Source: Eubacteriales bacterium
Lineage (GTDB): Bacteria; Bacillota; Clostridia; Oscillospirales; UBA644
Direction of reading: 5' to 3'
NCBI GenBank assembly: GCA_045652445.1
Contig: JAZRUJ010000028.1
Coordinates: forward strand, 3,478-67,477
DNA: 64,000 nt
Shown: piece by piece, positions 1 through 48,894 of the stretch
How positions within the stretch are numbered: the stretch's first letter is position 1
Layout: each line of letters begins with the position of its first letter
Notes under the pieces: model-generated
Databases searched by the model: none
Seen by the model: the letters and a program-made list of their open reading frames with translations, nothing else
What the model was told of the DNA's origin: nothing
Position numbers and translations under genes: made by a program

Positions 1-1857
1 AATGCGAACCAAAAAAACTATTCCTATCCCTATCTGGGCATGGGGGTTGCCATTGAAAACGGAGTAAATCAATACACTTTTTTTGGAAACCTTCATACGA
101 TCACCCAATACGGTGCTATCGGTCAATTGCAAGCCCAGGCTGAATTTAAAAGGGGTAATTGCATTAAAGAAACCATCTATACCGCAGAGGGAAATGTAAA
201 TTACTATTACACCCACGAATATGACGGTGATTTTCGCATTGGATCTGCCTTGTATCAAGATGGACAGATTGTTCAATCGGTCAGCTATGCAAAAGAAAAA
301 GATGGTAAAATTAAGGCAACAACCATTTATTATTTGGAAGAAAATCGGGAAGAAATTTCCCTTCTAACCCTATCAGAAGATGGAAACCTGACGCTAAAAG
401 AAACCCAAACTGACGGTCAAATTCTTCTGCAACAATATAACGGACCCCTGGTAGCGGAATCAACTTTGACCGAAAATGACGGAACCGTTGTTTCTCGGTA
501 TGTTTATGAATACAACGGCAATAAACAATTATTAACCCAGACGGAGTACGATGGAAATAACGGAATTCAAAGCCGCACAGTCAACCAATACAACGAAAAA
601 AATTTGTTGACGAAAACAATTTTCTATAACGGCGACGGCGATATTCTCAATTACGACACCTATAATTACGATCAAAACGGAAACCCCATCAAACAGGTTC
701 AATATTCCGGCAACGGAACAATGCTGAATCAAATTTTGAGGGTGTTTAACGATAAAAACCGTGTTGTAAAAGAAACCAGCCTGAAATCCGACGGTTCCAT
801 TCAATATTGCACCGGATACGATTACGATGACCGGGGAAATGTATTCAAATCCATTGTTTACGATACGGAAAACAGTACCGTCATTCGGCAATATACATTA
901 TTGACTCGTAACGAAGCGGGAACCGTTATTGAAAGCAACACTTACAATGCTGCAAAAACGCTTATTGAAAAAATTCTATACAACCATAGTGGTTTTCTAA
1001 CAAACCGCTATCAATACAATGACAGCGGAAATCTAACGTTGGAAGAACTTTTGCAGTATGATCAAAAACAACGGGTCACCCTGAAATCCACAACCAACTA
1101 TACCGACGACGGAAAAAAGAAGAACGCTTTTAGCGAACAGTACGACGAAATGGGGCTTGTGGTTGTTCAGGTGGAAGAAAATGTAGAAGAAAGCCTTTAT
1201 ATCCAACGCCTATTTGAATATCATTCAGACGGATGGAGACAAAAAGAAACCGCTTTCGACAAAAACGGAAAAACCCTCTTTGAACGGCAATACGACCAAA
1301 AAGGCCGCATTAAATCCGAAAAATTGTTTGAAAAGGGTGTTCAAACGGTCTCGAATGAATACGTCTATGATGAAAATGACCGTGTCGTTACGAAAAGTTC
1401 TTTGGATTCTCTGACAAGTATTCTCATTAAAACCGTTTATACCTACGATAAAAACGGCATTCTTCTTTCTTCGCTGGATTCCAACGTGTTAGGCGTTGCC
1501 ATAACAAAACGGGAATATGACAAACAAGGATTGGTTACCGAAATTACTAATTATGACGACGACGGATTCATAAACGGTTATGTTAAATTTGAATACGATG
1601 ATCAATCCCGCGTAATTGTTGAAAAACGCTATGATATTGAAAAAAATTACGTAGGAAAAACCGTATATTACTACCGCGTCGACGGTGGGACTGATTACAC
1701 AATCTATGACGAATCGGACGTCGCTGTGGAAGATTCCAGAGGCTCGGAATATCTACCCGACAATGACGACAGTAATAACGATGATCAAAATCAAAATACC
1801 GACAGCACAGACACCAATACCCCATCTAGCGACGCAACGCAAAACAACAACAACTAA
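1..1857 (+). CDS. YD/RHS-like repeat protein, 5' partial, with an N/D/T/Q-rich low-complexity C-terminal tail
   Basis: Frame 1 has no stop from nt 1 up to the first ATG at 40, so the gene continues upstream of the window. The product consists of many degenerate units with Y-x-Y-D-x-x-G-N type cores (YEYDGDF, YNYDQNGNPIK, YDYDDRGNVFK, YQYNDSGNLT, YTYDKNGILL, FEYDDQSRVIV). It ends in ...DDSNNDDQNQNTDSTDTNTPSSDATQNNNN. Confidence 0.6.
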   Translation, partial: NANQKNYSYPYLGMGVAIENGVNQYTFFGNLHTITQYGAIGQLQAQAEFKRGNCIKETIYTAEGNVNYYYTHEYDGDFRIGSALYQDGQIVQSVSYAKEKDGKIKATTIYYLEENREEISLLTLSEDGNLTLKETQTDGQILLQQYNGPLVAESTLTENDGTVVSRYVYEYNGNKQLLTQTEYDGNNGIQSRTVNQYNEKNLLTKTIFYNGDGDILNYDTYNYDQNGNPIKQVQYSGNGTMLNQILRVFNDKNRVVKETSLKSDGSIQYCTGYDYDDRGNVFKSIVYDTENSTVIRQYTLLTRNEAGTVIESNTYNAAKTLIEKILYNHSGFLTNRYQYNDSGNLTLEELLQYDQKQRVTLKSTTNYTDDGKKKNAFSEQYDEMGLVVVQVEENVEESLYIQRLFEYHSDGWRQKETAFDKNGKTLFERQYDQKGRIKSEKLFEKGVQTVSNEYVYDENDRVVTKSSLDSLTSILIKTVYTYDKNGILLSSLDSNVLGVAITKREYDKQGLVTEITNYDDDGFINGYVKFEYDDQSRVIVEKRYDIEKNYVGKTVYYYRVDGGTDYTIYDESDVAVEDSRGSEYLPDNDDSNNDDQNQNTDSTDTNTPSSDATQNNNN

Positions 1858-13158: not shown

Positions 13159-13275
13159 TCCCACCACTCCTTCGCTGAATGATATTCAAAACGCGAAGTA
13201 GATATGCGGAACGAAACAGTACTATTATATTTTATATATTCTAAAATATTATAACACAGAACAAAAAATTTGTCA

Positions 13276-34724: not shown

Positions 34725-35423
34725 GTGGGAAAGATTCATTCCATACAATCCTTGGGCACGGTAGATGGTCCCGGAATTCGGTTTGTAGTATTCCTGCAAG
34801 GGTGTAACCTTCGTTGCGGATGCTGTCATAATCCCGACACCTGGAACCCGGAAGATGGGACGGACATTTCTGCGGAAGATATCGTTGCAAAAGCCGAGCG
34901 ATATAAAAGCTACTTTGGAAAAGAGGGCGGAATTACCCTCTCCGGAGGAGAACCGCTGTTACAACCGGTCTTTGCAAAAGAGATTTTTTCCCTTTGTAAA
35001 CAACGAGGAATTCATACCTGTCTTGACACGTCGGGAAGCCTTATAAACGATGATATATCTTCTCTTTTAGACCAAACCGATCGGGTGCTTTTGGATATAA
35101 AATACCCCACGGAAGAACAATATCAAAAATACGTGGGCTGCGATCTTGCAACACCGTTACAGTTTTTGGAAATCCTAAATCAGAAGAAGATACCCACCAC
35201 CTTACGGCAGGTAATTATTCCCACGCTGAATGACAATGATACGTCGATAGAATTTCTCAATCGGTTAAAGAAATCATATCCTTGCGTAGACAAAATGGAA
35301 CTGTTGCCTTTCAAGAAAATCTGCACGGTAAAGTACCAAAATATGGGTATTTCCTTTCGGTTTGATTCCTTTGATACTCCTACGGTAGATCAAATGAAGG
35401 CACTGCAAGAAAAATTGAATTAA
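34725..35423 (+). CDS. pflA: Pyruvate formate-lyase activating enzyme (radical SAM)
   Basis: GTG start 2 nt after the pflB stop. N-terminus GTVDGPGIRFVVFLQGCNLRCGCCHNPDTW contains the CxxxCxxC radical-SAM motif. Confidence 0.9.
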   Translation: MGKIHSIQSLGTVDGPGIRFVVFLQGCNLRCGCCHNPDTWNPEDGTDISAEDIVAKAERYKSYFGKEGGITLSGGEPLLQPVFAKEIFSLCKQRGIHTCLDTSGSLINDDISSLLDQTDRVLLDIKYPTEEQYQKYVGCDLATPLQFLEILNQKKIPTTLRQVIIPTLNDNDTSIEFLNRLKKSYPCVDKMELLPFKKICTVKYQNMGISFRFDSFDTPTVDQMKALQEKLN

Positions 35424-40400: not shown

Positions 40401-41105
40401 TTACTCCGCACCGTCGGTTACTTTATAACCGTAGCCCCAAACCGTATCGATTTCAAAGGAAGTTTGGGCAGCATCCAATTTCTTTCGGATACGCTTAACC
40501 AAATCGTCTACGGCTCTTGTATCACCAATATATTGATAATCCCAAATACTCGTCAGCAATTGGTTTCGGGTAAAAACCCGGTTCTTATTGGTTATCATGT
40601 ACAGAAGAAAATCATACTCCATAGCAGTAAACGCCAAATCCGTCTCATTTTCCCCTTCTACTTTGACAACGCGACGCTGGGTGGGATAAATCTTCAGATC
40701 CCGGCAACGAGGTTCTGCCACGGTCCTTTCGTCATTCATGCCGTCCACCCGACGAAAGACCGCCTTGACGCGGGCAACCAATTCCCGGGGAGAAAAGGGC
40801 TTCATCATATAATGATCCGCACCCATTTCGATTCCCAAAATCCGATCCAGCTCTTCGTCCCGGGCAGAAACGATAATAATGGGCGTGTTATCAATCTTGC
40901 GGATTTCGTTGCACAGTTCAAACCCGGACATCCCCGGCATCATAATATCCACGATCAGCATGTCGGGCTTATAGCGGGAAAACGCCTCCAAAGCCGGCTC
41001 TGCAGAATCAAATTCCATAACGGAAAAAGATTCTTTTTCCAAATAAGAACGAATGATCTGCCGAATATTTTTTTCGTCGTCAATCACAAAAATTAATTTT
41101 GCCAT
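40401..41105 (-). CDS. OmpR-family response regulator
   Basis: Receiver domain (IFVIDDE ... DMLIVDIMMPGMSG) plus a winged-helix output domain (VWGYGYKV). The start at MAKLIF follows GGAGAGGG. Confidence 0.9.
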   Translation of the reverse strand: MAKLIFVIDDEKNIRQIIRSYLEKESFSVMEFDSAEPALEAFSRYKPDMLIVDIMMPGMSGFELCNEIRKIDNTPIIIVSARDEELDRILGIEMGADHYMMKPFSPRELVARVKAVFRRVDGMNDERTVAEPRCRDLKIYPTQRRVVKVEGENETDLAFTAMEYDFLLYMITNKNRVFTRNQLLTSIWDYQYIGDTRAVDDLVKRIRKKLDAAQTSFEIDTVWGYGYKVTDGAE

Positions 41106-41252
41106 AAAGACCACCCTCTCCGCCCACAGGCAGTTTTTTATCTTAATAATACCATTATAAAATAATTTATCATATATCTTATTAAGATTTTGTGTCTTTT
41201 TTTAGTATTTATTAAAACAATGAAGATTTTCAAAAAAGGGAGGAGGGGAAGA

Positions 41253-41324
41253 ATGTCCAAAAGCAGTAAAGGACACGCTTCCCCTCAGGCATGGAAAAAC
41301 TGTTGTATAAAGAATAGGAATTAA
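41253..41324 (+). CDS. Candidate 23-aa micro-ORF (MSKSSKGHASPQAWKNCCIKNRN)
   Basis: The ATG is preceded by an unusually strong SD (AAAGGGAGGAGGGG) at about 7-nt spacing. It lies in the gap between the response regulator gene and the Cys-rich gene. There is no homology support. Confidence 0.25.
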   Translation: MSKSSKGHASPQAWKNCCIKNRN

Positions 41325-41376
41325 GCAAGTTTCATCCGGTTCTTCCCTGTTTACAAAACCATTATACAACACAAAT

Positions 41377-41456
41377 TCCGAAAAAATAAGATCGGTTTGT
41401 GGCAGGTTTTCGGAAAAAAAGGAACAAAAAAAGACCGAATCTTTCGACTCGGTCTT
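41377..41456 (-). terminator. Tandem terminator hairpins downstream of the Cys/Asp-rich gene
   Basis: Hairpin 1 (41431-41456) is AAGACCGA...TCGGTCTT with T7 on the minus strand. Hairpin 2 (41377-41415) is TTCCGAAAA / TTTTCGGAA (9 bp) followed by TTTGTGTT on the minus strand. Hairpin 1 also has a T-rich tract on the plus strand, so it may act in both directions. Confidence 0.65.
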
Positions 41457-41469
41457 TATTTACGTGAAA

Positions 41470-41703
41470 TTATTCGGCGTCAGCAGATTCGTCGCAACAA
41501 CCATCGCAACCGTCTACGACTTCAAAATAGCCGCATTCATCGTCATCACAATCGCAATCACAGCAATCACAGTCACAACCGTCGCCGCAACCGATCAGCA
41601 TGCGAAGCTTATCCCGGAAGATGTAGCACAGAAGAGCTACAACCCCTACAAATGCGATGACCCCCAAAATAATACCGAGAACGGTTCCCGATTTCTTACT
41701 CAT
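41470..41703 (-). CDS. Small single-pass membrane protein with Cys/Asp-rich acidic tail (metallothionein-like; FeoB-associated Cys-rich-like)
   Basis: MSKKSGTVLGIILGVIAFVGVVALLCYIF (TM segment), then ...GCGDGCDCDCCDCDCDDDECGYFEVVDGCDGCCDESADAE. The gene has its own consensus promoter, an RBS (AGGAAAGG) and terminators. Confidence 0.6.
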   Translation of the reverse strand: MSKKSGTVLGIILGVIAFVGVVALLCYIFRDKLRMLIGCGDGCDCDCCDCDCDDDECGYFEVVDGCDGCCDESADAE

Positions 41704-41752
41704 AAAACACACGCCTTTCCTAAAAAAATCAATGTTTGTTTTGCTTAATCTT

Positions 41753-41781
41753 ATTATAACTTATCTTTTTTGTTTTGTCAA
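41753..41781 (-). promoter_or_regulatory. Perfect consensus sigma-A promoter of the Cys/Asp-rich gene
   Basis: On the minus strand: TTGACA, 17-nt spacer, TATAAT. Confidence 0.7.
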
Positions 41782-41805
41782 CAGTTTGCCCGGATTTTTC
41801 ATAAT

Positions 41806-42813
41806 TTATTCCGCATTTCCCCCGACAGAAACTTGGTAAATGGATTCTGCATTCCGAGAAAACTCCCGAAGCCGATCCACCATCTGTTCCGGATATAAAA
41901 GTCGAATTTCTTCACAATGAATCAAAAGCCAACCAAAGAGAGACTCATCTGCAGGAATATCACAGGTTAGAAGATAAGAACCGTCGGCAGCAGATTCTAC
42001 CGTAGAATCAGGAGGAAAACGATGCTCTGCCGCGGCAAGAAAATCTTCAGAAACCCAGAAAATCATGCGAAGAGAATCTTCCAGAGAAGAAAAGTACCCC
42101 TTAATATATTGATTCAAATCAAAGTCAAGGTCTCCCCCGACTTCCCGCAAGTCCGTTGCCCGAAGCGTCGCTTGTACAACTTCTTCCATTCGGTCTGCTC
42201 GATAGAAAGCGAGTGTTCCTTCTTCATCGGCACCCACCAAATAGTATCCGTCCTGCCAAACCATACGATAAGGAGACACCGTTTGATGCCGCGAGGTCTT
42301 TTTTCGGGATCCGTCCGACAAGACAGAACCTTTATATAAAAATCGGACTTTACAGCCGTTGGAGATCGCGTCAAACAAGGTTTCTACGTTGGAATAGACC
42401 CGCTCGGTAACAGAACTGTCGGGAATGACCGATATGAGATCTTGAAAAACACCCTGAGAAAAGCCGTCGGACGCAAGAATGCGTAATTTTCGTTCCAATT
42501 CCGGCTTCCGTTTCCGGGGAATGACGGGAGCAATTCGAATCAGGTTGGACAAAAGGCGAAAATCGTTACGAGTAAAGGGGCTTCCTGCCCAATAATACCG
42601 GGTATCTTTCGATCGAACCGTTCCTACGGTAAATCCGGCATCATTAAGGGCATGGAGATCCCGATAAAGGGATTTTCGCTCACATTCAACCCCCACCCTT
42701 TTCAACTGTGCTTCTAATTCAAAAAGAGTCATAGGGTGTTCCCGATCGGTCTGCTCACACAAAATACGTAAAAGGTGTAAAATCTTTTGCTTTTGTCGGG
42801 GCGTTCCCGCCAT
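41806..42813 (-). CDS. WYL-domain transcriptional regulator (HTH-WYL-WCX architecture)
   Basis: N-terminal wHTH (QKQKILHLLRILCEQTDREHPMTLFELEAQL) and a WYL core (VSPYRMVWQDGYYLVGADEEGTLAFYRADRM). I set the start at MAGTPRQ (42813). Confidence 0.8.
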   Translation of the reverse strand: MAGTPRQKQKILHLLRILCEQTDREHPMTLFELEAQLKRVGVECERKSLYRDLHALNDAGFTVGTVRSKDTRYYWAGSPFTRNDFRLLSNLIRIAPVIPRKRKPELERKLRILASDGFSQGVFQDLISVIPDSSVTERVYSNVETLFDAISNGCKVRFLYKGSVLSDGSRKKTSRHQTVSPYRMVWQDGYYLVGADEEGTLAFYRADRMEEVVQATLRATDLREVGGDLDFDLNQYIKGYFSSLEDSLRMIFWVSEDFLAAAEHRFPPDSTVESAADGSYLLTCDIPADESLFGWLLIHCEEIRLLYPEQMVDRLREFSRNAESIYQVSVGGNAE

Positions 42814-42887
42814 CAAAGTCACCTTCTTTATACATATTGCACAAATCAACAGAGGTTCGGTTGTATATATTCAACAACTATTACCTC

Positions 42888-46409: not shown

Positions 46410-46520
46410 GAGAGCAAGGCAAATTTCTTAAAAATTTCACGGAAAAACAAAAAGGTTGAAAGTACAATTTAAAAAATTAAAAAAAATGATAATTCATACA
46501 AAAAAAATTAAAAACAACTC

Positions 46521-46549
46521 TTGACAAAAACCGAAAAAAGTTATATAAT
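46521..46549 (+). promoter_or_regulatory. Consensus sigma-A promoter of the CofE-like / GMPS-like pair
   Basis: TTGACA, 17-nt spacer, TATAAT. It is followed by a leader of about 105 nt containing the hairpin CACATTCT...AGAATGTG. Confidence 0.7.
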
Positions 46550-46661
46550 ATACTGTGTATTTCTTTGCACATTCTCTGTATGGTTTGAAAGAATGTGGGA
46601 AATAATCTTTATGCGTATCACCTTGTTTAATTTTCGATACAAGAAGGATGGGAAAAAATTT

Positions 46662-47864
46662 ATGAACAACAAAGAACGCAGAGTCGGAACCGTTTCCAGA
46701 GGCATCCGTTGCCCCATTATCCGGGAAGGTGACGATCTTGCCTCTCTCGTAACGGATAGCGTTTTGGAAGCCGCAGAAATCGAAGGATTCGAATTGCGAG
46801 ACAGAGACGTTATTGCTATGACCGAATCTATCGTTGCACGGGCACAGGGAAACTATGCAAGTGTAGACGATATTGCAGCTGATGTAAAAGCAAAATTGGG
46901 CGGGGAAACTGTTGGGGTCATCTTCCCCATTCTTTCCCGGAACCGGTTTGCCATCTGTCTGCGTGGGATCGCAAAGGGCGTTAAGAAAGTCGTTCTTATG
47001 CTCAGCTATCCCTCTGATGAAGTAGGAAATGAACTGGTCAGTTTGGACAAGATTGATGAAGCGGGTATTAACCCCTACAGCGACGTTCTCACCGAAGCTC
47101 AATATCGGGAACTGTTCGGCGAAAACAAACACGAATTTACCGGCGTAGACTACGTTCAGTACTACGGTGATTTGATTCGCGAAATGGGTGCGGAAGCTGA
47201 AATTATTTTTGCAAACCAAGCAAAAACCATCCTTAAATACACCGATTGCGTCCTGAACTGTGATATTCACACTCGTGCCCGCACCAAACGTATTCTGCTT
47301 GCCAATGGTGCAAAGGTTGTTTGCGGATTGGACGACATTTTGAACAAGCCTGTGAACGGAAGCGGATGCAACGAACGATACGGTCTTCTCGGCTCGAACA
47401 AGTCTACAGAAGATAAGATCAAACTGTTCCCCCGGGAATGCAAGGATTTGGTTTTGGATATTCAGGATCGTGTACAAAAAGCCACCGGAAAACACGTGGA
47501 AGTTATGGTCTACGGCGACGGTGCATTTAAAGATCCTCAAGGTAAAATTTGGGAATTGGCAGATCCCGTGGTCTCCCCTGCCTTTACCGACGGTTTGATT
47601 GGGACTCCCAACGAACTGAAGCTGAAATATCTTGCCGACAATGATTATAAGGATCTCTCCGGTGAAGAATTGAAAAAAGCCATTTCCGAAAGCATCAAGG
47701 CCAAAGACGGCAGCAGTTTGGTGGGCAACATGGCAGCACAAGGAACCACCCCCCGTCAACTGACTGACCTGATCGGTTCTCTCTGCGACCTGACCAGCGG
47801 TTCCGGAGACAAAGGGACTCCCGTTATTTTGGTTCAGGGTTATTTTGACAACTACACCAACTGA
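46662..47864 (+). CDS. CofE-like (F420-0:gamma-glutamyl ligase family) protein, about 400 aa with an insertion
   Basis: N-terminus VSRGIRCPIIREGDDLASLV...DRDVIAMTESIVARAQG and C-terminus GLLGSN...VMVYGDGAFKDP...GTPVILVQG follow the CofE fold pattern. The ATG at 46662 was chosen. The upstream part of the track ORF is promoter and leader. Confidence 0.6.
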   Translation: MNNKERRVGTVSRGIRCPIIREGDDLASLVTDSVLEAAEIEGFELRDRDVIAMTESIVARAQGNYASVDDIAADVKAKLGGETVGVIFPILSRNRFAICLRGIAKGVKKVVLMLSYPSDEVGNELVSLDKIDEAGINPYSDVLTEAQYRELFGENKHEFTGVDYVQYYGDLIREMGAEAEIIFANQAKTILKYTDCVLNCDIHTRARTKRILLANGAKVVCGLDDILNKPVNGSGCNERYGLLGSNKSTEDKIKLFPRECKDLVLDIQDRVQKATGKHVEVMVYGDGAFKDPQGKIWELADPVVSPAFTDGLIGTPNELKLKYLADNDYKDLSGEELKKAISESIKAKDGSSLVGNMAAQGTTPRQLTDLIGSLCDLTSGSGDKGTPVILVQGYFDNYTN

Positions 47865-47892
47865 TTGATTCGCACATAGGAAGGATAAAAAT

Positions 47893-48894
47893 ATGGATAC
47901 GAACAGACGTCCCGACACTATGCTCCGCATTACGACCAAAGAATTGGCAGATGCCTTTATTGCAGAACAGGTCAAGGAAATTCAAGCCCAAGTCGGCGAT
48001 AAAAAAGTACTTTTGGCCCTCTCCGGCGGGGTCGACTCTTCCGTCGTTGCAGCTCTTTTGATTAAAGCAATTGGAAAACAGTTAGTTTGCGTTCACGTAA
48101 ATCATGGTTTGATGCGTAAAAACGAGTCTGAAAACGTTATTAAACTGTTCCAGGACGGTTTGGATGCAAACTTGGTCTACGTCGATGCTACCGATCGGTT
48201 TTTAAACCTGTTGGCAAACGTTGCCGATCCCGAACAAAAACGGAAAATCATCGGGAAAGAATTTATTGAAGTTTTCGCAGACGAAGCCCGCAAATTGGAA
48301 GGCATTTCCTATCTTGCACAAGGCACCATTTACCCCGATATTTTGGAATCTATCAAACAAGCAGAAGGCAAAAAAGCCGTTAAATCCCATCACAACGTAG
48401 GCGGACTTCCCGAAGATCTGCAATTTGAATTGGTAGAACCCCTCAAATTGCTCTTTAAAGACGAAGTTCGTGTTGTTGGCGAAGCTCTCGGTCTGCCCCA
48501 TGCCATGGTATACCGTCAACCCTTCCCCGGTCCCGGTTTGGGTGTCCGTTGCTTGGGTGCCATCACCCGGGACAGACTCCACGCTCTGCGGGAAGCTGAC
48601 GCGATTTTAAGAGAAGAATTTGACAACTGCGGTCTTGCAGAAAAGGTTTGGCAGTATTTTGTTGTCGTTCCTGATATTAAGAGTGTAGGTGTCCGTGACG
48701 AAAGCCGTTACGAAGGTTGGCCCGCCATCATTCGTGCCGTCAACACCACCGATGCAATGTCCGCAACCATCGAAGAAATCCCCTACGAAGTTCTTCACAA
48801 AATCACCAATCGCATCACCCACGAAGTCGAAGGTATCAACCGCGTACTTATGGACCTCACTCCGAAGCCCGTCGGCACCATCGAGTGGGAATAA
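47893..48894 (+). CDS. GMP synthase ATP-pyrophosphatase plus dimerization domains only (no glutamine amidotransferase domain)
   Basis: PP-loop ALSGGVDSSV, KSHHNVGGLPE, RQPFPGPGLGVRCLG, and the canonical C-terminus PKPVGTIEWE. The protein is only 333 aa and begins at the GATase/ATP-PPase linker. The RBS AGGAAGGA precedes the ATG. Confidence 0.8.
   Translation: MDTNRRPDTMLRITTKELADAFIAEQVKEIQAQVGDKKVLLALSGGVDSSVVAALLIKAIGKQLVCVHVNHGLMRKNESENVIKLFQDGLDANLVYVDATDRFLNLLANVADPEQKRKIIGKEFIEVFADEARKLEGISYLAQGTIYPDILESIKQAEGKKAVKSHHNVGGLPEDLQFELVEPLKLLFKDEVRVVGEALGLPHAMVYRQPFPGPGLGVRCLGAITRDRLHALREADAILREEFDNCGLAEKVWQYFVVVPDIKSVGVRDESRYEGWPAIIRAVNTTDAMSATIEEIPYEVLHKITNRITHEVEGINRVLMDLTPKPVGTIEWE

Follow-up and report, generated by a model that had tools for sequence, protein, structure and literature searches.

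The 64,000-nucleotide stretch of contig JAZRUJ010000028.1 (Eubacteriales bacterium, assembly GCA_045652445.1, positions 3,478 to 67,477 of the forward strand), which as a whole is called the window here, carries on its minus strand a small gene at 41470..41703, which the substitution pattern among its homologs marks as a genuine protein-coding gene under strong purifying selection. Its product of 77 amino acids combines one transmembrane (TM) helix with an acidic, cysteine-rich tail, and is tentatively read, with somewhat less than even confidence, as a membrane-docked, metallothionein-like metal-binding microprotein, possibly the partner of a transporter encoded elsewhere. The role in metal buffering or sensing, which the first-pass annotation of this stretch had called plausible, is inferred, with indirect support from analogous microproteins encoded beside cation diffusion facilitator (CDF) and CNNM/CorC genes and from a zinc ribbon found within one family member. 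The gene and the two parts of its product are located as follows.

41470 to 41703, minus strand: coding sequence of the microprotein (77 amino acids, ATG start, TAA stop at 41470..41472), from the list of open reading frames (ORFs), the sequence and the homologs.
41602 to 41685, minus strand: TM helix (residues 7-29) with the juxtamembrane FRDKLR stretch (residues 29-34), the most conserved part of the protein, from AlphaFold and the alignment.
41473 to 41595, minus strand: acidic Cys-rich tail (residues 37-77), from composition and the alignment.

The sequence of the protein is MSKKSGTVLGIILGVIAFVGVVALLCYIFRDKLRMLIGCGDGCDCDCCDCDCDDDECGYFEVVDGCDGCCDESADAE. The ATG at 41703 is the start common to all homologous loci in the locus comparison. 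An in-frame GTG at 41712 is present only in the window genome and its equivalent is out of frame in the homologs, so the ATG is taken as the shared start. Among 18 distinct homologous coding sequences, codons 1-36 show a synonymous divergence (pS) of 0.656 and a nonsynonymous divergence (pN) of 0.057, with a pN/pS ratio of 0.086, so that synonymous sites are near saturation while the protein is nearly unchanged. In the tail, the codons for Cys (TGC/TGT) and Asp (GAT/GAC) swap synonymously between homologs, which indicates that the residues are selected and that the tail is not a DNA repeat. No second ORF of this kind occurs in the 64-kb window. A chance ORF in repetitive DNA without function, for which the simple composition and variable length of the tail could speak, is ruled out by the substitution pattern and has a negligible probability: the pN/pS ratio stays at 0.086 with pS at 0.66, the promoter, ribosome-binding site and terminator are all conserved, Cys codons vary synonymously, and the gene recurs in no fewer than 11 species-level genomes. 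The first-pass annotation had named unconserved Cys positions as the mark of such an artefact, and C43, C45 and C48 are invariant in the homologs.

The 77-residue ORF with a single TM helix, as described in that annotation, is borne out by an AlphaFold model built on the family alignment, which has one helix at residues 3-36 with a mean pLDDT (the confidence score of the model) of 76, 95 and 85 in the first three blocks of ten residues. Residues 20-34 (GVVALLCYIFRDKLR) are invariant in 32 distinct family proteins, together with G6, G10, G14 and F18, and the helix has a glycine-rich pattern, G6xxxG10xxxG14xxA17xxG20. The G14..A17-F18..G20 and FRDK motifs are retained even in the distant members P0024 and P0025 (P numbers denote proteins, and L numbers loci). 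The TM and juxtamembrane region is thus far more conserved than the neighbouring regulator of the WYL family, which shows 58-71% identity across the same genomes, against the near-invariant helix. In a helical wheel, the variable Ile/Val positions lie at 20-160 degrees and G6, G10, G14, A17 and G20 at 200-320 degrees, an arrangement that is suggestive of a packing face opposite a lipid-exposed face. Three Lys/Arg residues follow the helix and two precede it.

The tail is made of a first Cys cluster (C39-C57), the GYFEV motif (residues 58-62), a second cluster (C66-C70) and an acidic C-terminus that ends in Glu. Residues 37-77 hold 11 Cys, 12 Asp and 4 Glu without any Lys or Arg, giving a net charge of -16, which agrees with the Asp/Glu-rich tail first described. 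The 14 tail cysteines then counted are too many, since the protein has 12 in total, C26 in the TM helix and 11 in the tail. About 27% of the tail is Cys (11 of 41 residues), arranged as CxCxCCxCxC with CxC, CC and CxxC motifs. Besides the three invariant cysteines, D49, Y59, E61 and E77 are conserved in at least 90% of the family, and position 60 is almost always Phe or Tyr. Tails in the family are variable in length, free of Lys/Arg and have net charges of -14 to -22. The pLDDT of the tail is below 50, and the tail is predicted to be disordered in the absence of metal.

A search of 5.8 billion protein clusters gives 23 homologs of 66-109 amino acids, none of which has a Pfam domain, and scans of the window protein against Pfam, NCBIfam, PADLOC and PHROGs find no significant family, returning only noise driven by the TM helix (Syndecan, MacB_PCD, MyrrCad). 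The gene is found in 11 species-level genomes, all metagenome-assembled genomes (MAGs) of uncultured Clostridia/Eubacteriales, with names that place several of them in the cecum or rectum of water deer or the rectum of cattle. An exact-sequence look-up of the window protein (P0001) finds no recorded contig. A search with the family profile in 1.84 billion representative proteins, with a cut-off of E ≤ 1e-3, gives just 7 matches. P0024 and P0025 are true members, which have the same upstream WYL gene and the same promoter. P0023, a protein of 109 amino acids from a metagenome contig of 1196 bp, has a CPxC...CPxC zinc ribbon between its Cys clusters, and this insert matches the Pfam model Zn_ribbon_LysW with E 4.3e-5. 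P0026, with 1396 amino acids, contains 25 stretches that match the family profile (E 2.8e-12) and is presumably a repetitive TM or Cys/Asp-rich protein. P0027, which has an acidic tail free of Cys, is a borderline match driven by the TM helix (E 9e-5) in a housekeeping context, and is not used as evidence. The family is restricted to one lineage of uncultured animal-gut Clostridia. Taken with the substitution pattern, these searches describe a strongly selected, lineage-restricted microprotein family outside the coverage of Pfam and NCBIfam.

The indirect support for metal binding comes from P0023 and from two analogous proteins, P0028 and P0029, which are acidic, Cys-rich, single-pass microproteins matching the family profile with E of about 4e-4. 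Their genes are found at the following positions.

L063, 5001..5225: locus of an analogous microprotein.
L067, 5001..5303: locus of an analogous microprotein.

Downstream of the P0029 gene, at 74 nt, is the gene of a CDF transporter (TIGR01297, 202 bits, cut-off 82). P0029 itself is encoded between a gene for a nickel-dependent LarA-family epimerase (643 bits against 500) and an Opp/Nik-type ABC system, and P0028 is encoded directly upstream of a CNNM/CorC-family gene. Both proteins resemble the family in having a TM helix followed by an acidic Cys-rich tail (CCCCEDDCDTCDCDCEYDC... or CPCCKCKDCDCEDCDC...), but lack FRDKLR, GYFEV and the WYL neighbour, and have adjoining transporter genes instead. 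The relation of these two proteins to the family is an analogy, homology not being established over convergence. The pairs of FeoB-associated Cys-rich peptides (PF12669) with FeoB, of P0029 with the CDF transporter and of P0028 with CNNM/CorC point to a theme of Cys-rich single-pass microproteins beside genes for divalent-cation transporters. Zinc ribbons are typically cytoplasmic Zn sites, and the neighbours of the analogs together with the zinc ribbon of P0023 favour, by analogy, a cytoplasmic, metal-binding tail.

On these grounds we infer a possible topology, metal binding, oligomerization and partnership. Transcription would run from the gene's own consensus promoter to its own terminator, directly behind the WYL gene. 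The Gly-rich TM helix and FRDKLR may form a specific helix-helix interface, for self-association or for docking to a larger membrane protein, and the tail would most likely lie on the cytoplasmic face, where it could bind thiophilic or borderline metals (Fe2+, Zn2+, Ni2+/Co2+, Cu+), possibly held in thiolate/carboxylate clusters shared by several chains. In this way the microprotein could buffer metal close to the membrane, or serve a metal transporter encoded elsewhere as a hand-off or regulatory partner. A wider generalization, by which Cys-rich single-pass microproteins would be a widespread, unrecognized class of accessory or hand-off partners of divalent-cation transporters and the present family its free-standing, strongly acidified version, oligomerizing through a glycine-zipper helix into a membrane-tethered metal-thiolate buffer of several chains, or bacterial "membrane metallothionein", is an unlikely conjecture drawn from the same analogies.

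The resemblance to FeoB-associated Cys-rich peptides had been pointed out in the first-pass annotation, which proposed to check it with profile searches. PF12669 describes a small peptide downstream of feoB or fused to it, whose Cx3-5Cx2-3Cx6-8C motif is thought to bind iron, with translation and function unproven (PMC8749426; PMC8980893). The window protein has no match to the PF12669 hidden Markov model (HMM) even at E ≤ 10. Below the threshold, 16 of the 23 family members match it, the best with E 5.5e-4, and P0020, P0023 and P0025 reach 13-16.5 bits against a gathering threshold of 27 bits, which is not attained by any of these three, the members for which bits were shown. The matches of P0020 and P0023 span almost the whole model. 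A profile-profile comparison by hhalign, with a template of 31 genuine PF12669 proteins, aligns the family with 91% probability (E 1e-6, score 37.9) over the TM helix, the basic stretch and the first Cys cluster, placing the basic stretch of the family on the juxtamembrane basic stretch of PF12669. Controls with reversed profiles score 15-16 and a fully column-shuffled template 6-12, and 12 architecture-keeping shuffles, made within the TM block and within the tail block, score 18.9-28.6 with up to 67% probability. The TM region by itself (13.6) and the tail by itself (11.0) are not significant. The real score exceeds all 12 architecture-preserving shuffles (maximum 28.6), so that the signal is mostly shared architecture and composition with a modest excess above them. 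The spacing C43-x3-C47-x2-C50-x6-C57 fits the PF12669 motif, a fit that is nearly unavoidable in a tail with 27% Cys. Membership in PF12669 is not established, because both the HMM threshold and the linkage to feoB failed; no FeoB domain is found in the ORFs scanned around the gene, in the other window ORFs of at least 500 amino acids, or within 6 kb in L001-L009. The resemblance is thus measurable and mostly architectural, and a protein built like a PF12669 peptide is well supported. The added statements that it is longer, more acidic and not next to feoB are all confirmed.

Several observations weigh against the proposed metal-binding role. Genes for metal transporters, metalloregulators and metallochaperones are absent to a distance of about 15 kb in the window and of 6 kb in the related loci. 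The Cys content is not fixed, since tails have 4-17 Cys, and that of P0025 has 4. A profile search of solved structures finds no metallothionein or other match, the noise being a TLR4 TM peptide at E 0.05, and the conserved aromatic residues Y59 (at least 90%) and F60 are atypical of metallothioneins. The analogs P0028 and P0029 are each a single cluster at the borderline E of about 4e-4, and a CNNM/CorC protein is not in the strict sense a metal transporter, this one having polyamine exporter PaeA as its best NCBIfam name. The similarity with PF12669 is largely architectural. The helix-face pattern is not significant (permutation p = 0.13), and the topology is ambiguous by charge rules, as the N-terminal Lys-Lys is signal-anchor-like and the acidic tail could be exported.

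The gene is surrounded by transcription signals and by a regulator gene, which are listed below with the control region of the following response regulator (RR) and histidine kinase (HK) genes.

41753 to 41781, minus strand: sigma-70-type promoter TTGACA-17 nt-TATAAT, 12 of 12 matches, from a motif scan and conserved in the loci.
41714 to 41721, minus strand: ribosome-binding site AGGAAAGG, 10 nt before the ATG, from the sequence.
41782 to 41805, minus strand: A/T-rich block ATTATGAAgAAnnnGGGAAnACTG of about 24 nt, from the WYL stop codon to the -35 box, conserved in all loci.
41806 to 42849, minus strand: upstream neighbour, gene of an HTH-WYL(-WCX) transcriptional regulator (HTH, helix-turn-helix), from the Pfam WYL and PADLOC WYL models.
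41420 to 41457, minus strand: intrinsic terminator of the microprotein gene (12-bp stem, GAAA loop, T-run; hairpin 41457..41430), from a terminator scan, -18.5 kcal/mol.
41361 to 41415, minus strand: probable promoter/operator region of the RR-HK operon, outside the microprotein gene (TTCCGAAAACCTGCCACA...TTTTCGGAA...TATAAT), from sequence conservation and relocation.

All homologous loci of sufficient extent retain the promoter, the ribosome-binding site and one intrinsic terminator. TTGACA-17-TATAAT is perfectly conserved at homologous loci, including the divergent L023 and L024, and the block GAAAGGCGTGTTGTTTT-ATG is also conserved across loci. The perfect promoter (41781..41753) and the ribosome-binding site are as first annotated. 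The high expression that had been deduced from the promoter is not supported, since ten perfect TTGACA-N17-TATAAT sites occur in the 64-kb window, where 0.47 are expected even with one mismatch allowed. They lie at 13248, 17403, 22744, 31862, 32311, 36599, 41753, 46521, 50089 and 55712. The window genome seems to use exact consensus promoters unusually often, and the promoter of the microprotein is thus real but does not single the gene out. The ATTATGAAgAAnnnGGGAAnACTG block, which even the most divergent members, L023 and L024, retain, is a possible UP element, operator or regulator-binding site. The gap between the WYL stop codon and the -35 box is of 24 nt and has no terminator, so read-through from the WYL gene is possible, which makes the proposed stand-alone unit weaker than originally stated.

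In each of 19 distinct loci a hairpin with a folding energy of -15 to -25 kcal/mol precedes a T-run, and the stem sequences are mutually unrelated, so this terminator is conserved as structure, not as sequence. An Rfam scan of 40900..42000 gives on it only a sub-threshold Thr_leader match, which is rejected as a terminator look-alike (28.6 bits against a gathering score of 55). Of the two tandem terminators initially proposed, the first (41457..41430, with its T-run) stands and the second, at 41415..41375, is not supported. The terminator scan does not call it. The fold of the 41361..41415 element is weak, at 0 to -8.7 kcal/mol in the various loci, and what comes after it is a -10 box and no T-run. 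Where other genes intervene after the microprotein gene, as in L001 and L015, the element has stayed with the RR-HK operon. In these two loci it is found in front of the RR gene, at about 10480..10545 in L001 (10498) and about 7660..7725 in L015 (7677). The weak fold, the -10 box and the relocation indicate a promoter/operator of the next operon and not a terminator, and TTCCGAAAACCTGCCACA/TTTTCGGAA is probably the RR-HK promoter plus operator. The element has the arrangement TTCCGAAAACCTGCCACA-N(about 17)-TTTTCGGAA-N(about 12)-TATAAT, holds an inverted repeat, CCGAAAA/TTTTCGG, and is placed about 250 nt before the RR-HK operon. The long 5' leader of the RR gene also has a conserved nucleotide block at about 41277..41325, whose opposite strand reads AWKNCCIKKG in 12 loci. 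An ORF on that strand is rejected as a gene, there being no consistent start codon across loci, which points to conservation at the RNA or DNA level rather than to a peptide; Rfam has no match in this leader block.

The window neighbours of the gene are ECF-S, TldD, PmbA, WYL, RR, HK, MatE and DeoR. In every locus with enough flank the gene order is TldD, PmbA, WYL and microprotein, with the WYL gene directly upstream, including L023 and L024, and no other gene adjoins the microprotein gene directly in all loci. On the same strand there usually follow genes for an OmpR-type RR and a HAMP-HisKA kinase. Two small ORFs and an FtsX/ABC cassette lie between the microprotein gene and RR-HK in L001 (6477..10466), and an ORF of 360 amino acids in L015 (6438..7520). 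Distant WYL relatives with 24-30% identity have no comparable downstream gene in the 24 loci scanned of 35 fetched. This makes the pairing with WYL specific to the clade, and a general WYL-microprotein module is rejected. Elsewhere in the window, two long ORFs have no Pfam match, at 40..1857 (plus strand, 605 amino acids) and 46494..47975 (minus strand, 493 amino acids). The latter is probably spurious because it overlaps an ORF on the opposite strand similar to F420-0:gamma-glutamyl ligase (46521..47864).

These neighbours suggest other roles for the microprotein. The RR and HAMP-HisKA kinase genes, which follow on the same strand in most sufficiently long loci, could mean an MgrB-like accessory peptide of this two-component system, whose TM helix would pack on the two-TM kinase and whose tail would modulate signalling, for instance with redox state or metal. 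A helix so extremely conserved fits such a specific membrane partner, but a terminator and separate promoters divide the units, the insertions in L001 (the ABC/FtsX cassette) and L015 (the 360-residue ORF) part the genes while the RR-HK promoter element moves with RR-HK, and within one narrow clade a shared gene order may simply be inherited. We consider this role unlikely. Slightly less credence is given to a thiol or redox device, a membrane-tethered Cys sink or disulfide switch for an anaerobe facing oxygen or oxidants. The dense Cys of the tail and the hosts, which are uncultured gut Clostridia MAGs and presumably anaerobes, agree with it, and the Cys-rich motifs of FeoC-like elements could serve either metal binding or redox sensing, both having been proposed (PMC8749426). 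Against it, the tail is strongly acidic and has CxC/CC spacing, both more typical of metal sites, the number of Cys has a fourfold range within the family, and no thioredoxin, peroxiredoxin or redox-regulator genes are among the neighbours.

The WYL gene, upstream in every locus examined, and the conserved block of about 24 nt before the -35 box would also agree with an effector of a WYL-regulated stress or defence module, whose glycine-zipper helix would oligomerize and perturb the membrane on induction, as GxxxGxxxG glycine-zipper helices can form pores. This is improbable, because distant WYL relatives (24-30% identity) lack such a downstream gene, PADLOC and PHROGs have no match for the microprotein, the same perfect promoter occurs elsewhere in the window, and we know of no small membrane toxin with a Cys/Asp-rich tail. 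The TldD and PmbA genes, which are found two genes upstream in all longer loci, bring in a precursor of a ribosomally synthesized and post-translationally modified peptide, whose Cys-rich core would be modified and then released by this protease pair. TldD/E processes the Cys/Ser/Gly-rich precursor of microcin B17 in Escherichia coli. Such a precursor is highly improbable here: there is no cyclodehydratase, lanthipeptide synthetase or dedicated radical-SAM (S-adenosylmethionine) maturase nearby, the only radical-SAM gene (34725..35423) being beside pyruvate formate-lyase and 6 kb away, the strongest conservation falls on a TM helix, and TM helices are not a known type of leader, and the supposed core varies in length by insertions and deletions. 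A membrane-docked metal-binding microprotein is tentatively the preferred reading.

If the tail binds metal, uncultured gut anaerobes would have in this microprotein a simple and genetically compact case of a metal buffer, or transporter partner, tethered to the membrane. With the CDF and CNNM/CorC analogs, it could give a handle on the role of FeoB-associated Cys-rich peptides, which the Feo literature leaves open, including whether they are translated (PMC8749426). The family is also an instance of very strong selection on microproteins that Pfam and NCBIfam miss. For the present its impact is modest, given a putative function and an occurrence limited to one clade.

Among known systems, MgrB with PhoQ, MntS with MntP, and KdpF are small membrane-protein partners of transporters and kinases. 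The microprotein has no sequence relation with them, and its Cys/Asp tail is without counterpart there, but it shares with them a length below 100 amino acids, a single TM helix in which conservation is highest, and a small transcription unit of its own. Metallothioneins are likewise comparable in part, as the tail is small, has about 27% Cys in CxC, CC and CxxC motifs and is predicted to be unstructured without metal; the microprotein differs in being membrane-anchored and extremely acidic, and has no match to solved metallothioneins. The PF12669 peptides, likewise found in Firmicutes, agree with it in layout: the N-terminus is very short, the TM helix is single and is followed by a juxtamembrane run of basic residues and then by a cluster of cysteines set close together. 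The family never adjoins or fuses to feoB, its tail is acidic (CDCD) where that of PF12669 is Gly/Ser-rich and basic (GCGCGCSGC), its N-terminus carries Lys-Lys, and the microprotein is about 25 residues longer, with GYFEV, a second Cys cluster and a conserved acidic C-terminus. In architecture it is an acidified, lengthened and relocated counterpart of the PF12669 peptides, from which it may descend.

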